41,358 nucleotides of DNA, taken from IMG/VR virus record IMGVR_UViG_2740892232_000004; one strand, given 5' to 3'. Shown piece by piece: positions 1 through 41,358 of the stretch. A program made the position numbers and the translations under genes. The notes beneath the pieces were generated by a model that was not told where the DNA came from, ran no database searches, and was given only the letters and a program-made list of their open reading frames with translations. This DNA is from a virus. Taxonomy: Duplodnaviria > Heunggongvirae > Uroviricota > Caudoviricetes. Numbering within the stretch: position 1 is the first letter of the stretch; every line of letters begins with the position of its first letter.

Positions 1-516
1 ATGAAATTTAAAAAATGTCTTCTGCCTGTGGCAATGTTAGCGTCATTCACTCTGGCAGGATGCCAGTCAAATGCTGATGATCATGCCGCCGATGTTTATC
101 AAACCGATCAACTGAATACCAAACAAGAAACTAAAACCGTTAATATTATTTCCATTCTTCCCGCAAAAGTTGCCGTAGACAACTCCCAAAATAAACGAAA
201 TGCACAAGCCTTCGGCGCGCTTATTGGTGCAGTCGCTGGCGGTGTAATCGGCCACAACGTGGGGTCTGGCAGCAATTCCGGAACGACGGCAGGTGCAGTT
301 GGCGGCGGAGCTGTTGGCGCGGCAGCGGGTTCTATGGTGAATGATAAAACCTTAGTGGAAGGTGTTTCTCTAACGTATAAGGAAGGCACCAAAGTGTATA
401 CCTCCACCCAGGTGGGTAAAGAGTGCCAGTTTACGACAGGTTTAGCCGTTGTTATTACCACGACGTATAACGAAACGCGTATTCAGCCAAATACCAAATG
501 TCCTGAAAAGAGCTAA
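1..516 (+). CDS. Lipoprotein with Gly/Ala-rich glycine-zipper-like segment
   Basis: Signal peptide ending in lipobox LAGC; GxxxG-rich stretch (GALIGAVAGGVIGHNVG...); complete ORF starting at window position 1. Confidence 0.6.
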   Translation: MKFKKCLLPVAMLASFTLAGCQSNADDHAADVYQTDQLNTKQETKTVNIISILPAKVAVDNSQNKRNAQAFGALIGAVAGGVIGHNVGSGSNSGTTAGAVGGGAVGAAAGSMVNDKTLVEGVSLTYKEGTKVYTSTQVGKECQFTTGLAVVITTTYNETRIQPNTKCPEKS

Positions 517-3367: not shown

Positions 3368-3394
3368 CCCGCAAAATATTGCGGGCTTTTTTTT
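3368..3394 (+). terminator. Hairpin plus T-run (plus-strand terminator-like) overlapping tailspike stop
   Basis: CCCGCAA-AATA-TTGCGGG followed by T8 on the plus strand; no T-run on the minus strand. Confidence 0.35.
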
Positions 3395-6300
3395 AACGTT
3401 CTTCCAGAGACTGAATCCGCTCTTTTATCTTATCCATTTCTCTGCGCTGCCATGCTGCCTCGATATAGAATAAGAGATCAGGTCTGACCCCCCATCTAGA
3501 TCCTGCTGGCGTTATTTCAACGCGCTCAATGATGTCTTCCATTACCATCACTGGATTATCATCCTCATCAACAATGATGCTCCCGTCATTATCAGTCAGC
3601 GGCATTTCCCTTTGGCCAGTAATGACGTCATCATATACTGCGGGATAATCGTCATAGCAAAGAAAGGCATAGCGGCATGTTGTGCTTTCTTCTTCCATGA
3701 GTCCGTGAGAAATAAGAACATCACGAAGTTGCTGCGCGATTACACCATGATGTATCCTCGCCCCTTCTTCCCCCTTTATAGCGACAGCGTTCAGCCATTT
3801 ATAAGCGATATACCTGACGTCACCCCAGGCATCCAGCAATGCTTCGTCAGGAGAGACCGGCTCTGTCTTTAATGTTCCGTCACTGGTAACCACAGGATTG
3901 GAGCCAAGATAAACTGTCGAGAACCTGTTTCCCGGACCACCAAGAGCATTTACATTATCAAGATAAGGTTTAACATCTCCGTTCTCAAAAAGATGTTCGA
4001 GTGCGTTATATACCGCGCGACGTGGAGTACTGCTTCCGGAACCATGCAACGTTATCATTGCACCATCTGCTGAAGACGTTGTTTCACCGCCGCTAACGAT
4101 TAATCTCTGAGCGGTAACATCATCAGACGGTACTTTCTTCGCAATAATGGCGTAATTACCCTCAAGTTTGACTTCCGCGCGAACTTGTCCTGATGTACCT
4201 GCATGGACAGTCAGTGACTGGACGGCAACATCATCTGTGAAATCAACGGGTACAGGAACCGTCCTCACGCCTGACGTCGACATAAAAGTAGGAAGCGTTC
4301 TGTTAGGAGTGGCTCCGTAGACAAAATCCCTTGAAACAAATTCTTCCTGTTTAATTTTCACCCTGAAACAATACAAATCAGCCGGGTGACCATCGTGAAC
4401 ATAAGGATATTTTCTGTTGTTATCCCCTATGCTCCATGGGTTTAGAAAGTCTTCCCCACCGAAAATGTAGTACAGCCAGTTGTCTTTGATACAAACTGAA
4501 CCAACACCAACTGCAGAGTTAACTATTCCGCCCTGATAAATCTGATCAGTAACATTAACCCACTCTACATTATCCAGACTCCACTCATTGACGTTAACTC
4601 TGGTCATAAATGTTCTTGGATAATTTCCTGCATAACGGTTATCAGGTTCTCCTCCTTCCCACTCACCAAATGCGCGCTCACTGCCAAAAATAATCAGCTC
4701 ATCGCCAACTTTGGCAAAAGGAAGGTTTGAGTGATGAACATTATTTGGGAAGCGAAGAGAATTCCATGATGTACCTAAATCAGAGCTTCTGTGCAATGAA
4801 CTACCGGGTTGAGTACTTAATGTCCCCCTGGTCGTCAGATACAGAATGCCATCATAATATTTTACACATGGCTCAGATGCATTCGCCTCATATTCTGCAG
4901 GTATGCGTCTGCGAACAAAGCTACCAGGAGAACCGAAAGCATCAGAGAAATAGAGTATCCCAAGCTCGCGTGGACCAATATCACCATTATGGTAGCCAAC
5001 AGCAAAACTGTTATCGCTAATCGTCGCAAAACTGTGAATCTCAGTAACAGGAGTGCTTCCGTCAACAAAAGAAGGAATAGTTCCAAGACTGGTTTTTCTC
5101 CATGGTGACGAGTGAAATGATGTACCAAAACTCCAGTATCTACCCTCGTTATTCTGATCCACATCCTGGGTATTTTGCGTCGTAACTGTAAAAGTATTTT
5201 TATCAATAACAGTAGTCACCGTCATATTCCCGGTAACACCTGTAACACCAGAGTTTGAGAAGTTGACAAAATCACCAGCAAATAATCCGTGATCAGTAAT
5301 GCGAATATAAGCGACTTGCTGATTTGCTGCTTTCGTTATACCACCATAAGCGCGAAGGCTGCGACTCATTGGGCGATCCCACAACTCTGCAACCTGCAGT
5401 TTATTTCCGCTCACGGTCCGCGTCTCAATTACAGCAAAAAGGCGATTTCTGACAACCCCCATACTCATGCAGTGATAGTTAACTGTGGGATAGTTTTCAT
5501 GTAAATCTGTAAGCCATTCCGGCGTTGTCCAGGTCTTCCCGTCATCTCCTGAGCGAACCCATGCAACATGGAGGTTATTTACACCATGGCGGTCTCCAGC
5601 CATAAAAGGCGCATAGATGACATTGTCATATACAAACGTTTTATCCTGCGTCCAGGCGTTGTACCACGGTGTATCTGTAATTTTAAATAACTCTCCCTGG
5701 ATAAAATCTTCAGAAGCATAAAAAAGAGGCTGGCCCGGTATTCTCTCAAATAAAAAACGAGCATTTTTAAATCGACTGACATCCGGAAGAGTTGATACTT
5801 TAAAAGTAAGCCCTAATCCGTCAATTTTATAACCTGGAGATGAGGCTTCAAGGCACGCGCTTATTGCAGTGGAATCGTCATTTATACCATCACCAACAGC
5901 TCCAAAATCTTTGGGGCTAATAGCATCACGCATTTTATCCTGGAACGTTCGGTACACAGCCCCAGAACCATACTGAATAAACCAACCAAAACCACCAACA
6001 ACCCCGGCGATTGCAGCATCGACATAATTACGCATTGAGCGATTATTTACAGCGTCCTGCTCAAATGATGGATCTGCAAGGTTAGAAATTTTGTTTTGCT
6101 TTGCATCGTAATATTTTGCAAGCAAAGATGGTTTCATCAATGCACGTCTGAACCACCCAAAACATTGCTGGATCAGCATCGTCAGGTAGTCAAAGGCATC
6201 TTCATGCACTTCGGGGAAAAATTTTCCCTGATTGCGAAGGTCTGTCTCCTGCACTACATCAAGCACACGATCTATCGTAATTCGCCATCCAGTAGCAAGC

Positions 6301-6512
6301 GGAGACGGAAGAACCACAGAACCGCCACTATAAGTGCCCGCCCCAGTTACCGTATAACCGGTATCCAGAACCAATTCTGTTACGTTTCCGTTCAGGTCAG
6401 ACACCTGAACAACCAGGTCTGATTTTCTGAAAATTCGAAAAGTATACGGAAACGATGTCGTAACGCCGTTACCGGTGTATTCGTTGTGGTCAACTTCGGT
6501 TGAGACCGTCAT
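3393..6512 (-). CDS. Tailspike/tail fibre: N-terminal particle-binding domain, central domain with sialidase-type Asp-box motifs, C-terminal intramolecular-chaperone (peptidase S74-like) domain
   Basis: 1039 aa; GGAGAT RBS; Asp-box-like SGDDGKTW and SSDLGTSW; C-terminal …TSDGTLK… region typical of auto-cleaving chaperone domains of endosialidases/tail fibres. Confidence 0.75.
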   Translation of the reverse strand: MTVSTEVDHNEYTGNGVTTSFPYTFRIFRKSDLVVQVSDLNGNVTELVLDTGYTVTGAGTYSGGSVVLPSPLATGWRITIDRVLDVVQETDLRNQGKFFPEVHEDAFDYLTMLIQQCFGWFRRALMKPSLLAKYYDAKQNKISNLADPSFEQDAVNNRSMRNYVDAAIAGVVGGFGWFIQYGSGAVYRTFQDKMRDAISPKDFGAVGDGINDDSTAISACLEASSPGYKIDGLGLTFKVSTLPDVSRFKNARFLFERIPGQPLFYASEDFIQGELFKITDTPWYNAWTQDKTFVYDNVIYAPFMAGDRHGVNNLHVAWVRSGDDGKTWTTPEWLTDLHENYPTVNYHCMSMGVVRNRLFAVIETRTVSGNKLQVAELWDRPMSRSLRAYGGITKAANQQVAYIRITDHGLFAGDFVNFSNSGVTGVTGNMTVTTVIDKNTFTVTTQNTQDVDQNNEGRYWSFGTSFHSSPWRKTSLGTIPSFVDGSTPVTEIHSFATISDNSFAVGYHNGDIGPRELGILYFSDAFGSPGSFVRRRIPAEYEANASEPCVKYYDGILYLTTRGTLSTQPGSSLHRSSDLGTSWNSLRFPNNVHHSNLPFAKVGDELIIFGSERAFGEWEGGEPDNRYAGNYPRTFMTRVNVNEWSLDNVEWVNVTDQIYQGGIVNSAVGVGSVCIKDNWLYYIFGGEDFLNPWSIGDNNRKYPYVHDGHPADLYCFRVKIKQEEFVSRDFVYGATPNRTLPTFMSTSGVRTVPVPVDFTDDVAVQSLTVHAGTSGQVRAEVKLEGNYAIIAKKVPSDDVTAQRLIVSGGETTSSADGAMITLHGSGSSTPRRAVYNALEHLFENGDVKPYLDNVNALGGPGNRFSTVYLGSNPVVTSDGTLKTEPVSPDEALLDAWGDVRYIAYKWLNAVAIKGEEGARIHHGVIAQQLRDVLISHGLMEEESTTCRYAFLCYDDYPAVYDDVITGQREMPLTDNDGSIIVDEDDNPVMVMEDIIERVEITPAGSRWGVRPDLLFYIEAAWQRREMDKIKERIQSLEER

Positions 6513-6987: not shown

Positions 6988-7716
6988 CTATCGTTTCGCT
7001 TTGTGCTCGTCCCAGCACGTTTTGCACCATGCCATTAAGCCGTCCGCATTTTGATTATTAGGGTAAAAGCTGGTCCGTTTTCTGCGGACATTACAAATTG
7101 GGCACCACTTCATATGGCGTGTATTCTTTGGGCCATCGAGACACCTTGCACACCACTTAGTCAATCCATCTGGATTTTTTGACGATTTCCGGAATTTGTC
7201 ATATGGAAGGTTTATTCTGCATCGCAAACACTGCTTGCGGCCACTTGAAACTCTGTTAGCTGATTCTTCTTTTGGCGGCGATACAGAAGGTATTCTTGCT
7301 GGCTCTGATACTGCCTGAGGTGCTTTTTTAGATGACTGAGACGATATGTCATCACCAGGGAATCTTCCATGATATGCCGGACGCATTGATACTCCAGGTG
7401 GAAGCTCAGCTGTAAACGGCTTTGGCTGAATCAGTTGCCTCTCTTTTGCTAACTCCTGCTGTTTACAATATGTCTGGATTACCGCACTATCATAAGCAGG
7501 AGGTGCGGAAATATTAGGCGCATTACCTCCAGTTTTTTGAAACTGAGTAGAGGTGTGTTCTATCACCTGTGTACGATTAATCGTTATCTCCCCATCTTCG
7601 GTCTTTATCGTTTTGTTATGATTAACGACCGTACGATCAGAGATCTTAGTCTTGTTCTGGTTGATAACGTAAATAATCACCGCAACCACACCAACAACTA
7701 TCCAGAAAACTTCCAT
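6988..7716 (-). CDS. Membrane-anchored protein with tandem CxxC zinc-ribbon repeats
   Basis: N-terminal TM helix, S/P-rich linker, C-terminal four CxxC pairs with repeated …DGLxxWCxxC; GAGGAAAA RBS. Confidence 0.6.
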   Translation of the reverse strand: MEVFWIVVGVVAVIIYVINQNKTKISDRTVVNHNKTIKTEDGEITINRTQVIEHTSTQFQKTGGNAPNISAPPAYDSAVIQTYCKQQELAKERQLIQPKPFTAELPPGVSMRPAYHGRFPGDDISSQSSKKAPQAVSEPARIPSVSPPKEESANRVSSGRKQCLRCRINLPYDKFRKSSKNPDGLTKWCARCLDGPKNTRHMKWCPICNVRRKRTSFYPNNQNADGLMAWCKTCWDEHKAKR

Positions 7717-7845: not shown

Positions 7846-7935
7846 TTTACATCGCACTCCTCTTGTGCCATAGTAATCGGGCACTGGCAAAATCCAGTGC
7901 CGGGATTGGCGTCCCGGGTTACTAAGTGGCGCATA

Positions 7936-7957
7936 CCACGCCAGACGTGGTTTTTTT
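7936..7957 (+). terminator. Rho-independent terminator-like hairpin in a noncoding region
   Basis: CCACG-CCAGA-CGTGG followed by T7; preceded by a 9-bp stem-loop (GGCACTGG…CCAGTGCC) at about 7879-7902. Confidence 0.45.
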
Positions 7958-8113
7958 ATGCGTTAAGCACAGCTATATCCGAATTATGGTGGGCTGGGCA
8001 GGGGTCCGAAAGGACGCCGGTACCACTTAGGCCGGTACGCCAACCTTGTCCAGTTCACCACCAGTAATTGGCGTTGCGGTGGTGATTAAAATCACTAAGT
8101 GGAGATAACCACC

Positions 8114-8824
8114 ATGGCTAATGCTCAAACTTCCATCTTCAAATTTGAATCTGTTAACCCTATCCGTTCCATCATTATCGATGGCCAACCATGGTTTGTA
8201 GCCCAAGACGTTTGTAGTGCGCTGCGTATCCAAAACGTCACCCAAGCACTTGAAAAACTGGATGATGATGAAAGGTCTATGTTCAACATAGGGCATGAAC
8301 ATCGTGCAATTTTTGACAGCCGAGTAAAAGAGATCAACATCATCTCCGAGTCAGGCCTCTACACACTGATCCTCCGCTGCCGCGACGCAGTGACACCAGG
8401 CACTATCCCCTACCGCTTTCGTAAATGGGTTACGGGTGAGGTTCTTCCTCAGATCCGCCGCACCGGAAGCTACATTAAAAACTCGCTCCCGCAGGAAGAA
8501 CGCATAAAGATGGTTGCCGACCAGGTGGCCAACGCCACGGCGTCAGCAGTAATGCAGGCGATGAAGATAGAGAACAAAACCTACAGCGCCCCACTGAATC
8601 CCGGCTACCGCAGCCTGATTCATTCGCCGTCTGGTGTTCTCGGCCTGACGGAGAACTCACTGCTGATGAATCTGCTGAACCAGTTACAGGACGACGGGCA
8701 CGACGTATCGGGCGCGGCGGCGGAGCTGACCACCATGTTCTGCTACATCGTCGGTGTGAGCAAATGCCTGCGTGATATCCAGACCCACGCGGAATACATC
8801 AACGACAAGGCAGGGTTCTTCTGA
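8114..8824 (+). CDS. BRO-N domain antirepressor-like protein
   Basis: ATG with GGAG RBS; N-terminal BRO-N-like segment (FVAQDVCSAL…ISESGLYTLILR…FRKWV); C-terminal domain homologous to the 6708-6965 product. Confidence 0.75.
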   Translation: MANAQTSIFKFESVNPIRSIIIDGQPWFVAQDVCSALRIQNVTQALEKLDDDERSMFNIGHEHRAIFDSRVKEINIISESGLYTLILRCRDAVTPGTIPYRFRKWVTGEVLPQIRRTGSYIKNSLPQEERIKMVADQVANATASAVMQAMKIENKTYSAPLNPGYRSLIHSPSGVLGLTENSLLMNLLNQLQDDGHDVSGAAAELTTMFCYIVGVSKCLRDIQTHAEYINDKAGFF

Positions 8825-26401: not shown

Positions 26402-26478
26402 TCTCAGCGTTGTGGCATTAGCTCAGTTGGACAGAGCAACCGCCTTCTAAGCGGTTGGTCGCAGGTTCGAATCCTGCA
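26402..26478 (+). tRNA. tRNA-Arg (anticodon UCU)
   Basis: Folded by hand: 7-bp acceptor stem GUGGCAU/AUGCCAC, D-arm GCUC…GAGC, anticodon stem ACCGC/GCGGU with loop CUUCUAA, T-arm GCAGG-UUCGAAU-CCUGC, discriminator G, encoded CCA. Confidence 0.85.
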
Positions 26479-26531
26479 TGCCACGCCAGAATCACGCCTA
26501 AGGACCGTGATGCCAGAAGTTCCAGGTGCTT

Positions 26532-31780: not shown

Positions 31781-32069
31781 TGGTTGCCTCCTTTGCTGGG
31801 CTTTCGAATGTATCAAGCTCAAACAACTTAACCACGTCATCAAACAGGACATAATCGCCATCAGAATCTTCAGTCATGTCAGCGCCACAATCCTGACCGC
31901 ACGAGTCACAACCATCCATATCAAGCTCGTATCGCTTCAGGTTTGCGATATTTGATAAATTCAGCGCCAGTACAGCCAGGTCATAAACCTCTTCGGCAGT
32001 GACATCGCTGTTCAGTCCCATTTCATGGCGATATATGATTTTTCCTACTCGTTGTTTTGTGATTGTCAT
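31767..32069 (-). CDS. Hypothetical protein (100 aa), acidic, Cys cluster
   Basis: ORF with CDSCGQDCG motif; nin-like region. Confidence 0.5.
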   Translation of the reverse strand: MTITKQRVGKIIYRHEMGLNSDVTAEEVYDLAVLALNLSNIANLKRYELDMDGCDSCGQDCGADMTEDSDGDYVLFDDVVKLFELDTFESPAKEATSDQN

Positions 32070-32614
32070 TTTTGCTCACCGCCCTGTTCTTCCAGAAAAA
32101 TACGCATAGCCTCAAGCATCTCTTCGGTGTCATACGGTGACAACTTGTCACGCAGGATGTGTTCAATGCTGTTAATGAACTTGCGGATTGCTTTGCGTTC
32201 AATTTCAGCCAGGAAAGCGTCGGTGGCTTGGGTTTCGATATCGTTAATTTCAGGAAGAATCTCTTCCCATGTAGCGATATCGCCATTCAAATGCCATCCG
32301 GCAATTCCACTGGAGTTATCCGCAACACTGCGAACGGCTTCAATAGTTTCATGCATTGCCGCATTCTCCGCTGCCAGCGCCGAAAACTTCTCGTGTGCCA
32401 ACTTAACAGCCGCATCAGCCTGCTTAATTGACTCAATCGCTTTCTGCTGGTCTTCGGCCAGCGCATTAGCACGCACCAGTTGCACTTCCAGTTGCGTTGC
32501 CAAATCGCTGATCAGCTTTGCCACACTGCGCATATCAACGGCACCACATTCTGCTTTCAGTTCCGAAGCCATCTCATGCCCGGCGGCAACTAACCCTTTG
32601 ATATTACTTTCCAT
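32066..32614 (-). CDS. Hypothetical coiled-coil protein (182 aa)
   Basis: ORF coupled to downstream gene; Ala/Glu-rich helical. Confidence 0.5.
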   Translation of the reverse strand: MESNIKGLVAAGHEMASELKAECGAVDMRSVAKLISDLATQLEVQLVRANALAEDQQKAIESIKQADAAVKLAHEKFSALAAENAAMHETIEAVRSVADNSSGIAGWHLNGDIATWEEILPEINDIETQATDAFLAEIERKAIRKFINSIEHILRDKLSPYDTEEMLEAMRIFLEEQGGEQK

Positions 32615-32675
32615 CTTTACCCTCGCTTATCCACATAACTTATTGATTACATTGATAACTAAAAAGATCGTCGAT

Positions 32676-33020
32676 TCAGAACTCTTCGATGTTCCAGCCA
32701 CCACCTGCTTTCTTTGGTTTAACCGTTACCCCGATGATTCGGAACGGATACTGATCTGCGGCGACTTTGGTTTTCACCCTGGCGTCGTCGGTCCAGAAAC
32801 CTTTCACTTCGTGCAGTTCCATCTCTCCGGTGGCGAGCATCACAGCGAAATCGGGCGTATAGAACGTGTTGTCAGCTAACCGCAGCTTGATACCCTCGAA
32901 TCGATACCAGGCGATTTCCCCTGCACGTTTACGCTGCTCAAGGTGCTGGCAATACGCAGATTCTGTTTTGTTCATCTGGCCTGTTTTGAGTCGACCAAGA
33001 GCCTGTATCTGTTTTCTCAT
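32676..33020 (-). CDS. DUF1064-like putative nuclease-fold protein
   Basis: 114 aa with …YTPDF…E…K pattern; start codon abuts palindrome copy 7, whose AGGT arm sits in the RBS position. Confidence 0.55.
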   Translation of the reverse strand: MRKQIQALGRLKTGQMNKTESAYCQHLEQRKRAGEIAWYRFEGIKLRLADNTFYTPDFAVMLATGEMELHEVKGFWTDDARVKTKVAADQYPFRIIGVTVKPKKAGGGWNIEEF

Positions 33021-35057: not shown

Positions 35058-35288
35058 TCATGAGTAGAAGAAGTATGCCAGTTCTGCTTTTGAGCGCAGC
35101 CATTGTCTTGTTTTACAGGCTTTAAAAAGCCCATTCATCAATACTTTACCTGGCATTTTGCGCTTGCCTGTTAAGTGAGTCTGGATATAGTGACTCGTCG
35201 TTCCGGCTTCCTGTGCGAAGGCTTCACGCTCATCCGGAGTAAGTGCAAGCCAGTGCTTTTTGAAATCGAAATGTCCGTTATCGCTCAT
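35058..35288 (-). CDS. Cro-like HTH regulator
   Basis: 76 aa, HTH-like segment, first gene of the replication operon, divergent from the CI-like gene. Confidence 0.6.
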   Translation of the reverse strand: MSDNGHFDFKKHWLALTPDEREAFAQEAGTTSHYIQTHLTGKRKMPGKVLMNGLFKACKTRQWLRSKAELAYFFYS

Positions 35289-35354
35289 AGCTATTGCCTG
35301 ATATTTATTTCAGATAATAAATATTCACCCATAAGGTAACAAAAATCAAGGATA

Positions 35355-35388
35355 GTTACCTATGAGGTGCATTTACCTGTTGGGTAAT
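35355..35388. promoter_or_regulatory. Immunity-region operator cluster (degenerate TTACC-N5-GGTAA copies)
   Basis: GTTACCT-ATG-AGGTGCA and TTTACCT-GTT-GGGTAAT, plus an AGGTAAC half-site at 35334-35340, between divergent cro-like and cI-like starts. Confidence 0.5.
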
Positions 35389-35442
35389 ATTGCTTTAAAT
35401 TGAATCATCTACTGATTCATATATGAGGCGATTTTCCAGAAA

Positions 35443-36027
35443 ATGAAAAGTATCCAGGACGTCCGCAGGCAAAATCTCAACGACTTGATCGACCGTGAAT
35501 TCAATGGTGTTCAGACGCGGATGGCAGAAAAACTTGGAACTCAGGCAAATCTGGTAAACCGCTGGGCTCTTGGCAAGAAGGTTATCGGCGACCAGGTTGC
35601 ACGAAAAATTGAAGCTGCCGCCAATAAACCCCGTAACTGGCTTGATATTGATCGTTCGCTTTCTCAGGAGGGTTTTCAGCCTGTCGGCCCGAGCGATATA
35701 GGTCAGCTGGCGGCTCACAACCTGGAACGCTGGATGAGCGAAAGCCGCGACCTTTCAACACAGGGAAAACTTCACCGCGCATCCGGCGTCGCCCAGGTGA
35801 CAATCAGCCGCCTGTTAAACAATGAGGTCAGCGTTTCCATTTCCACCCTGGAGAATGTTGCATCCGCATTCGGGCGTCACGGATATGAACTACTGATTCA
35901 CCCGCACGACCCTGCGACTATCAACTATGACCGCTCACGCTACGCATTGTTACCCGAAACCGAGAAAGCAAAGATCGAAAGTTACATTGAATTTGTCATC
36001 AACCAGAACGAAAAAAGCAAACAATAA
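35443..36027 (+). CDS. CI-like repressor with two HTH-like segments and no LexA-type (S24) autocleavage domain
   Basis: 194 aa; HTH-like regions around residues 25-45 and 105-135; no GDSM / Ser-Lys dyad motif; no obvious SD upstream of ATG. Confidence 0.65.
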   Translation: MKSIQDVRRQNLNDLIDREFNGVQTRMAEKLGTQANLVNRWALGKKVIGDQVARKIEAAANKPRNWLDIDRSLSQEGFQPVGPSDIGQLAAHNLERWMSESRDLSTQGKLHRASGVAQVTISRLLNNEVSVSISTLENVASAFGRHGYELLIHPHDPATINYDRSRYALLPETEKAKIESYIEFVINQNEKSKQ

Positions 36028-36048
36028 AACTATAGTTTTCAGTAAGTA

Positions 36049-36072
36049 AGCCGCCTCATGGCGGCTTTTTTA
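36049..36072 (+). terminator. Rho-independent terminator after the cI-like gene
   Basis: AGCCGCC-TCAT-GGCGGCT followed by T6. Confidence 0.7.
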
Positions 36073-36083
36073 TTGCCAGATAG

Positions 36084-36100
36084 ATTACCTTACGGGTAAT
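36084..36100. repeat. Palindromic motif ATTACCT-TAC-GGGTAAT (copy 9)
   Basis: Upstream of the early recombination operon. Confidence 0.55.
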
Positions 36101-36145
36101 TTTTTTAACTCATATCTATTGACACCAAACCAAATAAGCATAATT

Positions 36146-36162
36146 ATTACCCCAACGGTAAC
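36146..36162. repeat. Palindromic motif ATTACCC-CAA-CGGTAAC (copy 10, degenerate)
   Basis: TTACC-N5-GGTAA core; extra AGGTAAC half-site at 36169-36175 overlapping the RBS of the 36181 ORF. Confidence 0.45.
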
Positions 36163-36180
36163 AGACCGAGGTAACAAGTT

Positions 36181-36333
36181 ATGCAGTGGAAAATCATCAA
36201 CGGTTGGTACTGCGTTACTGCATGCGGATTCATGAGCTGGAAGTTCCGCACCTTACAGGAAGGCATTAAGTGGGCTTTCGTCAGCAAAGAAGCTCGCGAT
36301 GTAGCCAACGATAACGAGATATGGGAGGGCTGA
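36181..36333 (+). CDS. Small protein (50 aa), first gene of the early recombination operon
   Basis: GAGGT RBS; W/C-containing; below track cutoff. Confidence 0.4.
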   Translation: MQWKIINGWYCVTACGFMSWKFRTLQEGIKWAFVSKEARDVANDNEIWEG

Positions 36334-36335
36334 TA

Positions 36336-36635
36336 ATGAACGTTAATCAGCAGAAAAATCTTCAAAAAATCATGCTGGCATTCGACAAGGACTACCGCCT
36401 GTCAGAACAGCTATATGACCGACAAGTTGAACTGATTGAGAGCATCCGACTTCATCAACTGTCCTCAACTTTCGACGTTGTAACAGGCAAAGGCGTTCGT
36501 CAGGAAGTGCTGGAGGCTGCTAAAGACAGCCCTGAGTTCGAAGAACTGATGGATGCCTACCGGCGCGAGGCAATGGCAATTATAGCGCGCTGGGATCTGG
36601 CGGATCAGCTTGATGGGCAGAGGGACGCGGCATGA
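36336..36635 (+). CDS. Hypothetical early protein (99 aa)
   Basis: GGGAGGG RBS 6 nt before ATG; precedes the exonuclease gene. Confidence 0.55.
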   Translation: MNVNQQKNLQKIMLAFDKDYRLSEQLYDRQVELIESIRLHQLSSTFDVVTGKGVRQEVLEAAKDSPEFEELMDAYRREAMAIIARWDLADQLDGQRDAA

Positions 36636-37531
36636 TGCGGAACGCTGGAATCATGGATAGAACAAAATACATCGGAGGAAGCGATGTTGCAGGGATTCTT
36701 GGAATTAGCCCATGGCGCACCCCGCTTGAGGTTTATCTGGATAAGGTCCAGCCACGTGTCAAACCAGTAGACCCAAGCAAGCAGAAAGTTTTCACGCGTG
36801 GCCAGCGTATGGAGCCATACGTAATAGACCTGCTTTCTGAGGAAACAGGGATGGAAATCGTTCATCGCGGAAACCGCTATATCCACCGTGATTACGATTT
36901 TATTGCAGCTGAGATCGATGCAGAAGCAGCGTCAGGCGAGAACATTGAGATCAAAACAGTTAGTCCGTTCAAAGCCAAAGAATGGGGAGAAATCCAGACA
37001 GATGCAATTCCTGTGCATTACACGGCCCAGGCCATGCACGGGTTGATGGTTACAAACAAACAGGTATGCGTTTTCGGTGTGCTTATCGGTGGCGACGACT
37101 TCCGAATCTATCGGGTTGAGCGTGATGAAGAAACTATCCAGGCGATCTTAGAAAAAGAAATCGCTTTCTGGGACCGAGTGAAAAATCTTAACCCGCCGGA
37201 AGCTACCAGCGTAAGCGATGTATCGCTGATGTTTGAGAAAGATGCCGGGACAAGTATCGAGGCTGACGGAAAGGCACTCGCACTATTCAACGATCTACGA
37301 GACATGAAATCACGCAGAAAATCACTGGAAGAAGAAATAGCTATATCAGAAGAGAAGCTGAAGATGTACATGCAAGAGCACTCAGTCCTGACCCTGGACG
37401 GAAAGCCGCTCTGCACATGGAAATCTCAGATCAGCAACAGATTCGACCAGAAGCTATTCCAGTCAGTACACCCTGAGTTATTCGAAAAATTCAAAACAAC
37501 AACGACACAACGCGTCTTCAGAATGAAGTAA
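36632..37531 (+). CDS. YqaJ-like (lambda Exo-type) recombination exonuclease
   Basis: Motifs GGSDVAGILG, …EIK…; adjacent to recT; ATGA overlap with upstream gene. Confidence 0.8.
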   Translation: MMRNAGIMDRTKYIGGSDVAGILGISPWRTPLEVYLDKVQPRVKPVDPSKQKVFTRGQRMEPYVIDLLSEETGMEIVHRGNRYIHRDYDFIAAEIDAEAASGENIEIKTVSPFKAKEWGEIQTDAIPVHYTAQAMHGLMVTNKQVCVFGVLIGGDDFRIYRVERDEETIQAILEKEIAFWDRVKNLNPPEATSVSDVSLMFEKDAGTSIEADGKALALFNDLRDMKSRRKSLEEEIAISEEKLKMYMQEHSVLTLDGKPLCTWKSQISNRFDQKLFQSVHPELFEKFKTTTTQRVFRMK

Positions 37532-37540
37532 GGAGAAAAA

Positions 37541-38563
37541 ATGTCTATCAATGCACTTAAGGCAGCGGCTACCGGTAACCAAGTTGCACATCATAATGAG
37601 AAACCAACAACTCTGGCCGGACTTCTGGCAGACCCAAAAATTAAAGCTCAGATGGCTTTGGCACTTCCAAAGCACATGACAGCAGACCGTCTGGCGCGCA
37701 TAGCAACCACAGAGATCAGAAAGGTTCCAAAACTTGCATCATGCGACCAAGCCAGCTTCCTGGGGGCAATTATGCAATGTGCCCAATTGGGTCTTGAACC
37801 AGGCGGAGCTCTTGGACACGCTTACCTGATACCGTTCGACAAACGCCAGAAAGTAAATGGAAGATGGGAAACCGTATCTACAGAAGCACAGCTGATTATC
37901 GGCTATCGCGGAATGATTGACCTTGCCCGCCGCTCTGGGCAGATCCTGAGTATCTCGGCTCGTACCGTACATACAAACGACAAATTCAGCTACTCATACG
38001 GCCTGGAAGAAACGCTCGAGCATTTACCTTGCGAAACAGGTGACCGCGGAGAATTAACGCACGTTTACGCCGTTGCACGACTGAAAGATGGCGGAGTCCA
38101 ATTTGAAGTTATGAGCCGGGCAGACGTTGAGAAAGTTCGTGCACTGAGCAAAGCCGGTAGCAGTGGCCCATGGGTTGATCACTTCGATGAGATGGCTAAA
38201 AAAACAGTAATTCGCCGACTGTTCAAATATCTTCCTGTTTCTATTGAAATGCAGAAGGCTGTTGTTATGGATGAGCGCGCTGAAGCTGGACTTAGCCAAG
38301 ATAACGCAGCTGTTATCACTGGTGAATATTCCGTAGTTGACGATGAGCGTCAACACCTGTCGCCAATTTCAGATTCAGAACGAGAAGAAGCTCGAGAATA
38401 TATCATCGCGATACTTAATAGCCTGGATCCATCTGCTGAAGATGCAAAAACGATGTTCAAGCGCGCTGAAAATGAAATTAACACCATGGCTGAAAAGCTC
38501 GGTGATGAATATCACCAAAAATTCATGATGACGCTTAACGATATGCGTCCAGAATTCGAGTAA
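37541..38563 (+). CDS. recT: RecT-family single-strand annealing protein
   Basis: Blocks ALPKHMTADRLARIATTEIRKVP, IIGYRGMIDLARRSGQI, THVYAVARLKDGG, IRRLFKYLPVSIE match RecT as I recall it. Confidence 0.85.
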   Translation: MSINALKAAATGNQVAHHNEKPTTLAGLLADPKIKAQMALALPKHMTADRLARIATTEIRKVPKLASCDQASFLGAIMQCAQLGLEPGGALGHAYLIPFDKRQKVNGRWETVSTEAQLIIGYRGMIDLARRSGQILSISARTVHTNDKFSYSYGLEETLEHLPCETGDRGELTHVYAVARLKDGGVQFEVMSRADVEKVRALSKAGSSGPWVDHFDEMAKKTVIRRLFKYLPVSIEMQKAVVMDERAEAGLSQDNAAVITGEYSVVDDERQHLSPISDSEREEAREYIIAILNSLDPSAEDAKTMFKRAENEINTMAEKLGDEYHQKFMMTLNDMRPEFE

Positions 38564-38612
38564 CCACCACCGCGGCGCCACGTGCGCCGCACTGCAACCA
38601 AGAGAGGTATTC

Positions 38613-38861
38613 ATGAAAGGTGCATTAGGTAAGAAAGAACTCCTGGCGGTGGTGCCACTGTCATGGAGCACTATCGACCGTATGGAGCGCGCAGGGGAAT
38701 TTCCTAAACGCTGGTATATCACCGATAAACGCTGCGCATGGAACCGTGATGAAGTTGAGCGTTGGCTTGATGAACGTCAGGCAGCAAGCCCGGCAGAGTT
38801 CCAGGGTAAAAAGCCTCCTGTTCAGCAACGTGTATATCGTCCCGTGAGCAACGCTGCATGA
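38613..38861 (+). CDS. AlpA/excisionase-like small DNA-binding protein
   Basis: 82 aa; …LSWSTIDRMERAGEFPKRW…WNRDEVERWL pattern typical of AlpA/Xis family. Confidence 0.6.
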   Translation: MKGALGKKELLAVVPLSWSTIDRMERAGEFPKRWYITDKRCAWNRDEVERWLDERQAASPAEFQGKKPPVQQRVYRPVSNAA

Positions 38862-38970
38862 GTGCGCTGCTAAGGCACTGGAGCAAATGGTCAGGATGGT
38901 ACTTATTCCTGGCCTCTGTTTCAGCATGGCTTTATCTGCTGGCATTAATTTTCAGAGAGGGTTGGATTAA

Positions 38971-39270
38971 GTGAGAAAGTTAAGCCGACTTGAAAAATAT
39001 CACATGAATAAGGTTTCAATGCGCAGTCCGTCAAAGATTGTCGCCGTTACTCCTGCGGCGATAGAGATCGAAAAACGCGCGATTGAAAGAGAGAAAAAAG
39101 GGCAATTCCGCATTGCCGCTCACCTTTGGCTTCAGTGTATGGATGTTGCTTCTGGTGATGTTGAACGTGCAAGGATCGCGGTTCGCAGGGACCAATGTAT
39201 CACAAAAGGTAACGGCCTTCGCCGTGGCGACTATAGCGGCATAGGATGTTGTGGGGTGGTTTATGACTAA
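38971..39270 (+). CDS. Small regulator-like protein (possible PerC-family)
   Basis: …FRIAAHLWLQCMDVASGDVERARIAVRRDQC resembles PerC-like proteins from memory; start uncertain (GTG 38971 or ATG 39004). Confidence 0.4.
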   Translation: MRKLSRLEKYHMNKVSMRSPSKIVAVTPAAIEIEKRAIEREKKGQFRIAAHLWLQCMDVASGDVERARIAVRRDQCITKGNGLRRGDYSGIGCCGVVYD

Positions 39271-39913
39271 GAAATACACACTAATCTATGCAGATCCACC
39301 CTGGGTATACCGGGACAAAGCCGCAGATGGTAATCGCGGTGCCGGTTTTAAATATCCGGTTATGAGTGTGCTGGATATCTGCCGCCTTCCTGTGTGGGAT
39401 TTGGCCGATGAAAACTGTCTGTTGGCCATGTGGTGGGTGCCAACACAACCACTCGAAGCACTAAAAGTTGTTGAAGCCTGGGGATTCCGTCTGATGACGA
39501 TGAAGGGCTTCACGTGGATAAAATGTGGTAGTCGACAACCAGATAAACTGGTTATGGGTATGGGACACATGACTCGCGCCAATAGTGAAGATTGCCTGTT
39601 TGCGGTAAAGGGAAAACTACCTACGCGCATTAATGCAGGGATCGTTCAGTCATTTACCGCACCGCGGCTTGAGCATTCAAGAAAGCCAGATATCGTTCGT
39701 GAAAAACTTGTGCAATTATTAGGCGATATTTCTCGCATTGAACTGTTCGCCCGCCAGACGTCTCATGGCTTTGATGTTTGGGGTAATCAGTGCGAAGACC
39801 CGGCAGTGCAACTACACCCTGGATACGCGTTGGATATTGGCGGATTAACAAATGCATTCAGCAATGCTCCGCTGTCACCAACAGACATCCAGGGGCGGGA
39901 GCGTGCTGCATGA
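39263..39913 (+). CDS. Orphan DNA N6-adenine methyltransferase (MT-A70-like)
   Basis: Catalytic DPPW motif in LIYADPPWVY near N-terminus; no adjacent restriction endonuclease gene. Confidence 0.75.
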   Translation: MTKKYTLIYADPPWVYRDKAADGNRGAGFKYPVMSVLDICRLPVWDLADENCLLAMWWVPTQPLEALKVVEAWGFRLMTMKGFTWIKCGSRQPDKLVMGMGHMTRANSEDCLFAVKGKLPTRINAGIVQSFTAPRLEHSRKPDIVREKLVQLLGDISRIELFARQTSHGFDVWGNQCEDPAVQLHPGYALDIGGLTNAFSNAPLSPTDIQGRERAA

Positions 39914-40104
39914 ACAGGGCATCACCAGCAGATTTAAGAAAATGCCTTGAAACTGCAAACATGCTTGCACACAGCGGGATCAGGTTTGTTCCAATTCCCG
40001 CTGTCACTGATGCTGAATTTGCAACACTGTCAGCAATATTCGAAAACAAAATTGAATCACTGGCAGCAGAAGCAGAGATGGAAGAAAATCAGCAGAACTA
40101 TTAA
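39910..40104 (+). CDS. Hypothetical small protein (64 aa)
   Basis: ATGA overlap with methyltransferase stop; convergent with integrase. Confidence 0.45.
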   Translation: MNRASPADLRKCLETANMLAHSGIRFVPIPAVTDAEFATLSAIFENKIESLAAEAEMEENQQNY

Positions 40105-40107
40105 ACG

Positions 40108-41358
40108 TTATTCCCCCGCCATCCACTTCTCAAACTTCGACGGGGAGAACGGAATCAGATCCGTATGCTCCCCGTCAATCCATGAATCAATCATATCGGC
40201 CCACTGCTGCAACATGTAGGCGCGCTGTCTGGCGTATTCCGCTTTGTTATATACGGCGCGCACACCTTTCTGCTCATGTGCCAGAGCCTTTTCAATCCAG
40301 TCTGAAGGATAACCAGCCTCATGCAACAACGTACTGGCTGTACGGCGCATATCATGTACAGTGAAGTCCTGAATATGCTCACCATCTTCATTTATTATTT
40401 TCACCGTTCTGTCGATCAGAGAGTTCAGCGCGGCATTAGATAATGGCTTCCGGAAATTGTAACGACCAGGAACCAGATATTCACTTCCACCAGCGCACAT
40501 CTGCAACCCGACCAATATATCCTGTGCCTGTTTAGGCAGGTAAATAACGTGCGCCCGGCTTCCCTTCATGCGGTCTGGAGGAATTGTCCATGTCCATTTT
40601 TTAAAATCTATTTCATCCCACGTTGCATTGGTGAATTCGCCCTTACGAACCATAGTGATAAGCACCAGTTTTAAAGCCATTTTCATAGTGCCCATAGCAC
40701 CAATGGCATCCAGCGTGCGGAAGAACAGGCCAATTTCTTCTGGTGCCAGTGTTCGCTCTCGTGGTTTAAATATGGCGATAGACGAAGGTTTAATGTCAGC
40801 CGCAGGATTAAACAAACCATGACCACGGTCATTGGCGTGACGGTATACGCTACTGATGATCTCCCTGGCCTGCACTGCTGTTGCCCGGCCACCGCGTTCG
40901 ACAATCCGGTCACACAAATCACGAACCATCGATGTGGTAATTTCAGCCATCATTTTATTGCCAAGAACCGGAAGTATGTCACGGTCGATCACCGCCTGTT
41001 TCATTGCGCGGGTACTGTCAGCCAGGATGACGTGTTTCATATAACTGTCGGTATGTACCGCAAACGTCTCGGCACCACGAATCTTTTTGATACCGTCACG
41101 TTTAGCCGCAGCCGGTGACTGGCCTGCTTTAAGCAGCTTCTTTGCAGCAATCAGTTCTTCTCGCGCTTCTGCCAGGCTGATACCGTCACGCCCATACTGC
41201 CCGATTACCAGTGTTTCGCGGCGACCGTTGATACGGTAGTCATAGCGAAACGAGACCGTGCCTGACGTAAGCACAGCTACATACAGCCCGTCACGATCGG
41301 AGACCTTGTACAGTTTGTCCTGCGGCTTGAGGTTTTTTAATTTTGTATCGGTAAGCAC
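40108..41358 (-). CDS. Tyrosine integrase with N-terminal arm-binding domain; 5' end beyond window
   Basis: N-terminal …LTDTKLKNLKP…LYKVSDRDGLYVAV… and C-terminal catalytic region (…HDMRRTAS…; LAHE…); ORF runs to the window edge. Confidence 0.85.
   Translation of the reverse strand: MLTDTKLKNLKPQDKLYKVSDRDGLYVAVLTSGTVSFRYDYRINGRRETLVIGQYGRDGISLAEAREELIAAKKLLKAGQSPAAAKRDGIKKIRGAETFAVHTDSYMKHVILADSTRAMKQAVIDRDILPVLGNKMMAEITTSMVRDLCDRIVERGGRATAVQAREIISSVYRHANDRGHGLFNPAADIKPSSIAIFKPRERTLAPEEIGLFFRTLDAIGAMGTMKMALKLVLITMVRKGEFTNATWDEIDFKKWTWTIPPDRMKGSRAHVIYLPKQAQDILVGLQMCAGGSEYLVPGRYNFRKPLSNAALNSLIDRTVKIINEDGEHIQDFTVHDMRRTASTLLHEAGYPSDWIEKALAHEQKGVRAVYNKAEYARQRAYMLQQWADMIDSWIDGEHTDLIPFSPSKFEKWMAGE

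Follow-up and report, generated by a model that had tools for sequence, protein, structure and literature searches.

The closest described systems to the locus analyzed here are the phages phiV10 and epsilon15. The phiV10 record already labels a PerC-family transcriptional activator (PhiV10p34), an adenine methylase (PhiV10p33, DNA methyltransferase), and a DUF1382 gene (PhiV10p32), and epsilon15 has an activator, gp31, and a methyltransferase, gp29. We analyzed their counterparts at positions 38971 to 40104 of IMG/VR record IMGVR_UViG_2740892232_000004, a Caudoviricetes sequence of 41,358 nucleotides that is referred to as the window in its whole length. On the plus strand, the region encodes a PerC-family small helical regulator of 99 residues with a GTG start (38971-39270), an MT-A70-family (beta-class) N6-adenine methyltransferase of 216 residues (39263-39913), and a DUF1382 protein of 64 residues (39910-40104). 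The explanation that we favor, with a probability of about 0.55, is that these are early genes of the lytic cycle, of which the methyltransferase protects phage DNA in advance against restriction and the PerC-like protein modulates early transcription.

By its gene content and alignment, the window is a temperate podovirus prophage of the genus Uetakevirus (epsilon15-like, phiV10/epsilon15 type) integrated beside guaA, which lies beyond the integrase in one matching genome. The whole window aligns with phiV10 along most of its length, with mosaic replacements, and among phages the best match to the region under study is phiV10 with its relatives (98% identity). Across 38560-41358, nucleotide identity to phiV10 is about 98%, gene order, overlaps, and the convergent integrase are all equal, and there are essentially no differences, whereas elsewhere the window is mosaic, with exo and recT resembling those of epsilon15 and several differing accessory genes. 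Both proteins share about 77% amino acid identity with epsilon15 gp31 and gp29. The order recT-alpA-membrane protein-PerC-like gene-(zero to two small genes)-MT-A70 gene-small open reading frame (ORF)-int is kept in epsilon15 (gp33 to gp29) and SPNIS2 from Salmonella, in Tyrion from Enterobacter, and in a Klebsiella prophage, where the pair holds the equal operon slot between the alpA-type excisionase gene and int. These relatives differ in having up to two genes inserted between the pair (gp30, DUF1317, a winged-helix protein, or a 355-residue DGQHR/DndB-like protein), and those of the epsilon15 group have another small gene in place of DUF1382.

The 1.7 kb around 38971-40104 is 99.9% identical to several Escherichia coli chromosomes, and 537 E. 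coli records, from 534 of 5426 complete genomes, contain 80% or more of it. In the matching genomes, the PGAP products are named “PerC family transcriptional regulator,” “MT-A70 family methyltransferase,” and “DUF1382 family protein,” and the first of these names is given to a protein identical to the PerC-like product of the window. The gene pair is therefore already known from a common type of E. coli phage; its identification is correct and ordinary, and it has little significance as it stands, the names being present in phiV10, epsilon15, and more than 500 E. coli genome records. Compared with the orthologues in epsilon15, Tyrion, and the Klebsiella prophage, the ratio of nonsynonymous to synonymous substitution rates (dN/dS) is 0.08 to 0.09 for the methyltransferase gene and 0.10 to 0.16 for the PerC-like gene, values that are comparable with those of alpA and recT and approximate because dS is near saturation. 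At about 0.1, dN/dS indicates strong purifying selection on both genes, and their sequences mark them as real coding, functional genes of the phage backbone, not chance ORFs.

The methyltransferase gene starts with ATG at 39263, the mechanically called ORF opening at a GTG at 39251, and its product has the N-terminal sequence MTKKYTLIYADPPW, in which DPPW occupies residues 11 to 14. It matches Pfam MT-A70 (PF05063) over the full profile (79.8 bits with a cutoff of 23.9; E value of 3e-22; residues 5-176 on profile positions 1-172 of 172) and PHROG 359 “DNA methyltransferase” (1e-119). DPPW is a catalytic motif IV of the type (D/N)PP(W/Y/F) at the N terminus of the domain, and the segment R-I-E-L-F-A-R...W-G-N-Q stands C-terminal to it, which is the beta-class motif order. 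In an alignment of 20 homologues of 60 to 80% identity, no variation is seen at P12, W14, E160, F162, R164, W173, or G174, conservation reaches at least 90% at D11, P13, and N175, and the final 40 or so residues are variable. E160 to N175 fall in the C-terminal segment, which would bind S-adenosylmethionine if the published METTL3 and MTA1 structures are a guide. The MT-A70-type assignment with its DPPW motif, as given in the initial annotation of this region, is thus borne out, and its coordinates were exact.

The best PDB match is the ciliate (Tetrahymena) DNA N6-methyladenine (6mA) methyltransferase MTA1 (7f4r; 5.9e-13), with 7f4l, 7yi8, and 8xyl also matched; DPPW aligns with DPPW and ELFAR with EIFAR. 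The eukaryotic enzymes MTA1/AMT1 and METTL3 belong to the same Pfam family and, like the phage enzyme, carry DPPW as motif IV at the N terminus of the domain. However, they are larger and work only in complexes, together with another MT-A70 subunit and accessory proteins, whereas the phage enzyme is a bare 216-residue domain with a variable tail of 40 residues. It is predicted to comprise little beyond the catalytic domain, with no separate target recognition domain. Its specificity would be of some interest to users of methylation tools and to those who study the eukaryotic writers of 6mA and N6-methyladenosine, of which it is a minimal relative in bacteria.

The database name “N6-adenosine-specific RNA methylase IME4” implies another substrate, namely, adenosine in RNA. 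The family is indeed named after the mRNA methyltransferase METTL3, the human form of which is itself among the PDB matches; JGI names of homologues say RNA methylase, and some beta-class enzymes act also on RNA (PMC7544214). The METTL3 match reaches only about 1e-5, however, against 5.9e-13 for the DNA enzyme MTA1, and the protein strongly matches (256.6 bits) the PADLOC model for Type II restriction-modification methyltransferases (MTase_II, PDLC03262), which indicates a presumptive DNA-methylating lineage. The database names stem from a COG label and not from an experiment. An RNA substrate is thus highly improbable, and DNA is the likely one.

Three groups of adenine methyltransferases were considered as identities or relatives of the enzyme and rejected. 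M.EcoGIX is a plasmid-borne, single-strand-specific methyltransferase, and Hia5, Hin1523, and Nme1821 are Dam-like DPPY enzymes. M.EcoGI and M.EcoGII, nonspecific adenine methyltransferases from prophages of E. coli O104:H4, are orphan, prophage-borne, and beta-class like the window enzyme (PMC5778455), but they are 349-residue DPPY/FxGxG enzymes of another family with a central target recognition domain, and no sequence relationship to the window enzyme was detected. What has been described for them is nevertheless of use as an analogy. M.EcoGI and M.EcoGII are silent in the lysogen, are presumed to be turned on at induction, and make DNA resistant to many restriction enzymes; M.EcoGII harms the cell if its expression is constitutive (PMC5778455). 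The prophage methyltransferases of ST131 are transcriptionally silent as well (PMC4659465).

The methyltransferase gene is flanked by the PerC-like gene, the DUF1382 gene, and int, and no cognate endonuclease was found in the window, either in the phiV10 annotation, which contains no restriction enzyme, or in Pfam, PHROG, and PADLOC scans. The Pfam and PHROG scans covered ORFs of more than 60 codons in most stretches of the window without a phiV10 match, leaving out six ORFs that overlap such stretches (among them one of 1039 codons at 3393-6512), and the PADLOC scan covered nine selected ORFs. The enzyme is an orphan (solitary) methyltransferase, as had been proposed initially, with the caveats of the ORFs at 32025-32879 and 6988-7716 and the six unscanned ones. 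Since an endonuclease partner was not found, an anti-restriction role for an orphan methyltransferase is reasonable.

Three further ORFs of the window deserve mention here. The one at 32025-32879 (plus strand, 284 codons) is oriented opposite to its neighbors in the early-right region, is absent from phiV10, and has a moron-like placement; Pfam, PHROGs, and PADLOC gave no match to it. The protein encoded at 6988-7716 (minus strand, 242 residues; PHROG 6762) bears zinc-ribbon repeats at its C terminus, matching endonuclease VII/“Lar-like restriction alleviation protein” (1.3e-09), which makes it a candidate for a further anti-restriction or nuclease function in the prophage. The ORF at 1-516 (plus strand) matches PHROG 1277 “DNA methyltransferase” (5e-111), but Pfam gives a glycine-zipper/TraT-like lipoprotein; the PHROG label looks wrong in view of this, and a second methyltransferase was rejected.

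For the product of 38971-39270, a resemblance to PerC had been proposed initially, and profile searches uphold it. It matches Pfam PerC (PF06069) with 30.1 bits (gathering cutoff, 22.6; E value of 6e-07; residues 35-80 on profile positions 5-50 of 90) and PHROG 868 “transcriptional activator” over residues 1-99 of 99 (5.7e-62). The GTG start of the 99-residue form, which overlaps the stop of the preceding gene, is better supported by sequence comparison than the internal ATG called by PGAP (83 residues; L002:6520-6771), because residues 1-16 (L..LEKYH) are conserved across genera, in homologues down to 59% identity; phiV10 has yet another start call (88 residues). The tblastn matches in epsilon15-type phages also begin at residue 1. 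An AlphaFold2 model is all-helical, with a mean predicted local distance difference test (pLDDT) score of 73.7 (80 to 90 in the core) and helices at residues 6-17, 28-42, 46-59, and 63-81, and there is no recognizable helix-turn-helix. A Foldseek search of the PDB with this model gave nothing significant, the best hits being MIT/TPR three-helix domains with an E value of about 0.2, and a PDB sequence search was empty.

PerC of enteropathogenic E. coli (EPEC) and Pch of enterohemorrhagic E. coli (EHEC) share with the window protein the Pfam PerC core (residues 35-80) and are small proteins on mobile elements (PMC4764244). Pch has no homology to known DNA-binding proteins; it is an anti-silencer that acts against H-NS and activates LEE1 (LEE, locus of enterocyte effacement) only through displacing H-NS/StpA from AT-rich DNA (PMC4764244). 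The window protein, in contrast, is a member of a separate phage subfamily (PHROG 868) that has conserved extensions of its own, LEKYH at the N terminus and YSGI..GVVYD at the C terminus. Its gene lies in a lytic early operon, whereas PerC and Pch are separately regulated, and no links to LEE or host targets were seen.

The layout of the early region carries the favored explanation. The window has the Uetakevirus early-left order repressor-pL-exo/recT-alpA-membrane protein-PerC-like gene-methyltransferase gene-int. The prophage repressor gene (35443-36027, plus strand) lies upstream of a terminator-like hairpin (36048-36067, plus strand; 8-bp stem with 6 GC pairs and a T-run), at the equivalent of which a terminator is annotated in phiV10. 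A candidate for a pL-like leftward early promoter follows at 36119-36147 (plus strand; TTGACA-17-AATTAT, 10 of 12 matches), and epsilon15 has annotated repressor operators in the equivalent region. In a scan with simple consensus patterns, this was the sole promoter-like site on the plus strand of 35200-40300, about 2.8 kb upstream of the PerC-like gene, and from 36147 to 40300 on that strand neither promoter-like nor terminator-like sites were found. Rfam and repeat scans of 38500-40300 gave nothing relevant.

Downstream of the promoter candidate, the early operon comprises two small genes, a lambda-type exonuclease gene (36632-37531), recT (37541-38563), and plus-strand genes for an AlpA-family excisionase/regulator of 82 residues (38613-38861) and a membrane protein of 38 residues (38858-38974; PHROG 17484, 2.6e-27), which precede the PerC-like gene. 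The AlpA-family protein matches Pfam Phage_AlpA (24.2 bits; cutoff, 21) and PHROG 66 “excisionase” (2e-16), and its epsilon15 counterpart, gp33, is annotated as an excisionase. Each gene from alpA to DUF1382 overlaps the next: alpA and the membrane protein gene in ATGA, the latter and the PerC-like gene in GTGA, the PerC-like and methyltransferase genes by 8 nucleotides, and the methyltransferase and DUF1382 genes in ATGA. On the minus strand, a gene for a P4-type tyrosine integrase of 416 residues (40108-41358; Pfam Arm-DNA-bind_3, Phage_int_M, and Phage_integrase) converges on them with its stop 3 nucleotides from that of DUF1382, and the window ends at its start codon. The initial annotation had placed two genes of interest next to the integrase; both genes and the adjacent integrase are there, but the third gene of the region, DUF1382, had not been mentioned.

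A moron is an accessory gene that forms an autonomous transcription unit, having a promoter and a terminator to itself and being expressed from the repressed prophage. The consensus scan detected neither a promoter nor a terminator on the plus strand of 38971-40104, and the neighboring genes overlap. Judged by this arrangement, the PerC-like, methyltransferase, and DUF1382 genes are the distal end of a repressed leftward early operon, not a moron. Such a layout, without a promoter and terminator of its own, favors expression in lytic growth over lysogenic conversion.

On the favored explanation, the pL-like transcript made upon induction or infection would pass exo, recT, and alpA and reach the genes for the PerC-like, MT-A70, and DUF1382 proteins. 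The methyltransferase would methylate adenines at N6 in phage DNA as it replicates and, as a side effect, in host DNA, so that the progeny would be protected in advance against adenine-methylation-sensitive restriction in the next host. In the lysogen the methyltransferase would be silent, by the logic described for the unrelated M.EcoGI and M.EcoGII. The PerC-like protein would modulate early transcription, most likely through a relief of H-NS-type silencing of AT-rich DNA as described for Pch/PerC. In this scheme we infer the timing of expression, DNA as the substrate, the protective role, and the anti-silencing mechanism, whereas the gene identities, motifs, selection, operon structure, conservation, and lack of a detected nuclease partner are observed.

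Several observations weigh against the favored explanation or weaken parts of it. (i) The PerC match spans only about half of the Pfam profile. (ii) H-NS was not coprecipitated with PchA by the authors who described the anti-silencing (PMC4764244), so that even in the archetype it is not certain that the proteins act through direct contact. (iii) The consensus scan could miss a weak internal promoter or read-through in the lysogen from the repressor transcript. (iv) The AlphaFold2 model of the methyltransferase, built with a 20-sequence alignment, has a pLDDT of 46 and is too poor for judging DNA-binding surfaces. (v) Literature searches gave no experimental study of the phiV10/epsilon15 methyltransferase, the PerC-like protein, or a close relative. 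(vi) The NCBIfam model ANR (NF033650) matches the PerC-like core (residues 35-77) with an E value of 3.4e-5, but the score of 23.6 bits lies below the curated cutoff of 32, so that the protein does not fall into that family; likewise, an hhalign comparison of the PerC-like family with the ANR protein Aar alone was not significant (E value of 0.058).

Aar, taken from plasmid pAA of enteroaggregative E. coli 042 (L128:46246-46437), has no Pfam PerC match. It shares with residues 37-76 of the PerC-like protein the pattern A-x3-E-x7-A-x3-W-x18-R-x3-C, and no positions are more conserved in the phage family than the residues of this pattern (A37, E41, A49, W53, R72, and C76). Aar is a three-helix protein, as is the PerC-like protein; the ANR proteins differ in being anti-activators that bind AraC-type regulators and H-NS, as has been described for Aar (PMC5570504, PMC4983702). 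The ANR match, although below the cutoff, and the binding of H-NS by Aar count in favor of an H-NS-related mechanism for the PerC-like protein. The PerC/Pch activators may be distantly related to the anti-activators of the ANR family, which we offer as a lead and not as a result.

The initial annotation saw in both genes candidates for lysogenic conversion, with a possible epigenetic role and cross-regulation of host virulence genes. According to this explanation, the resident prophage expresses both genes, which leads to heritable methylation of the host genome and to activation of host genes, for example, virulence genes. The membership in the PerC family is real, and Pch proteins, which are encoded by prophages, have host loci as their targets (PMC4764244). 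With 561 of 5426 E. coli genomes carrying it, the prophage is so widespread that a benefit to the host is conceivable, and the repressor gene is codirectional, so that read-through of its terminator could give low expression. However, the plus strand from 36147 to 40104 is devoid of promoter-like sites, no terminator belonging to the genes was found, and they overlap their neighbors, unlike morons, and lie downstream of early recombination genes under repressor control. PHROG 868 is a backbone subfamily in all Uetakevirus relatives whatever the pathotype of the host (Salmonella, Enterobacter, or Klebsiella), and prophage methyltransferases of other families are silent in lysogens or, in the case of constitutive M.EcoGII, deleterious (PMC5778455, PMC4659465). 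The virulence aspect was extrapolated from Pch/PerC proteins, with which this distinct subfamily has only the core of about 45 residues in common. Lysogenic conversion is thus unlikely, and the proposal is not sustained by the layout, which is that of a repressed early operon.

Another possibility is that methylation serves the phage's own biology by timing replication, packaging, or gene expression, as host Dam does in P1 packaging or as may be the case with CcrM-mimicking phage methyltransferases encoded near replication genes. Many homologues of the methyltransferase gene adjoin replication or nin genes, small phage adenine methyltransferases beside replication modules have been proposed to act in the phage cycle (PMC5537653), and the gene is kept across the whole phage genus. 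On the other hand, neither a target motif nor regulatory sites have come to light, the window gene stands at the integrase end, distant from the replication genes, and it shifts contexts like an accessory gene (28 of 41 loci, as detailed below). We consider such a role unlikely, though not implausible, and early lytic expression with protection against restriction is preferred.

The two genes might also form a cassette in which the PerC-domain protein controls the expression or activity of the methyltransferase, or directs or limits it on DNA, in loose analogy to the accessory subunits of the eukaryotic MT-A70 enzymes; MTA1 and METTL3, the nearest relatives with solved structures, belong to multiprotein complexes (PMC7544214). 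To see how often the genes are neighbors, we sampled one locus per species, which gave 41 MT-A70 loci of 56 to 90% identity, and searched them with an iterated PerC-like hidden Markov model and Pfam. A PerC-like gene is present within 1.1 kb upstream on the same strand in 13 of the 41 loci, and in the other 28 NinB, replication proteins, nucleases, or others are found there. An obligate PerC/MT-A70 pairing was therefore rejected, and the methyltransferase does not need such a neighbor. Nevertheless, the MT-A70 gene is directly preceded, with the ends abutting or overlapping, by a PerC-domain ORF in loci of Dryocola, Buttiauxella (two loci), Lonsdalea, and Acerihabitans (L019, L021, L023, L024, and L030, at about 3500-4600). 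In these five distant loci the operon context is a different one, the pair standing directly after O-type (HTH_36 plus Phg_2220_C) or lambda P replication genes.

A similar arrangement is found with an unrelated methyltransferase family. The CPS-53 prophage of E. coli K-12 has the order yfdO-yfdN-yfdM (L129:8113-8882), in which YfdN is a PerC-family protein (36.1 bits in its C-terminal domain) with an extra N-terminal domain of about 90 residues, and YfdM is a truncated phage Dam (PF05869). In 68 of 80 related viral contigs (L130-L209), an ORF for a 228-residue NPPY enzyme lies directly downstream of yfdN. Intact pairs of a YfdN-type gene and dam are also present in SfV (orf40-dam), in ST64B (sb43-sb44), and, at 45% identity, in Salmonella phage F1055. 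In YfdN-YfdM, SfV, and ST64B, as in the window, the PerC-domain gene lies directly upstream of an orphan adenine methyltransferase gene and overlaps it; they differ in that the enzyme is a phage Dam (PF05869, NPPY) and that the pair follows replication genes, whereas the window pair is next to int. In a wider census, a PerC profile search listed only subfamilies already sampled, and tblastn with the L030-type PerC protein found only Tyrion.

Fused gene calls exist (P0003, PerC plus MT-A70; P0267, PerC plus Dam), but they were rejected as Rosetta stone evidence, being 94 to 96% identical to unfused genes and probably frameshift artifacts. Further points speak against a cassette: 28 of the 41 MT-A70 loci have no PerC-like gene nearby, close relatives insert a DUF1317, winged-helix, or DGQHR/DndB-like gene between the pair, and stop/start overlaps join every neighboring pair from alpA onward, not this one alone. 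The perC genes of EPEC and pch genes of EHEC are not known to be adjacent to methyltransferase genes. The recurrent adjacency over two contexts and two methyltransferase families is suggestive, but it equally fits a common insertion hotspot. A functional cassette is thus rather unlikely at this locus.

A broader proposition, which is more doubtful still, is that in temperate phages of enterobacteria the orphan adenine methyltransferases have PerC-domain proteins as their dedicated partners or regulators. If it were true, the pair would have stayed together while its operon context changed and its methyltransferase family was exchanged, with MT-A70 in the window and in the five distant lambdoid prophages and phage Dam in the YfdN-YfdM, SfV, and ST64B types; PerC, Pch, and perhaps ANR proteins would descend from a phage module tied to DNA methylation; and a small PerC protein might gate or target a methyltransferase that has no recognition domain of its own. 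That an adenine methyltransferase gene recurrently follows directly on a PerC-domain gene is in any case a cheap, testable lead to the role of PerC-type proteins in phages. Together with the PerC-ANR resemblance, this adjacency is all that our analysis adds to the databases, and both are unproven leads.

The slot between the PerC-like and methyltransferase genes can itself hold a DNA modification-related gene. In SPNIS2 the two are separated by the gene of a 355-residue DGQHR-domain protein (L125:2453-3520), and the same probably applies to L010:2937-4004. In a batch Pfam scan that included the latter, one upstream ORF matched DndB, which is associated with DNA sulfur modification, and would be a second gene related to DNA modification in this slot.

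The DUF1382 protein (Pfam DUF1382, 105.2 bits, 1.8e-30) is about 47% identical (8.5e-13) to PDB entry 8dsb_A, which was named “Xis (Excision72)” by its depositors. It could thus be a recombination directionality factor besides the AlpA-type protein encoded at 38613-38861, although the depositor name may be a misnomer. At 40104-40108, 3 nucleotides separate the end of the early-left operon from the stop of the convergent int gene, and a terminator is absent there. Transcripts of the early operon would enter int in antisense orientation, and this could down-regulate the integrase in lytic growth.

Elsewhere in the window, Rfam identifies the Hfq-binding small RNA isrK and a C4 antisense RNA at 7881-7957 and 7982-8065, respectively (plus strand), directly upstream of a Bro-N (antirepressor-type) gene (8099-8824, plus strand). 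By its composition, the segment 7881-8824 is a predicted antisense immunity module of the prophage, similar to immI of P1/P7. A tRNA-Arg gene (anticodon TCT) lies at 26412-26488 (plus strand), between the structural and terminase genes.

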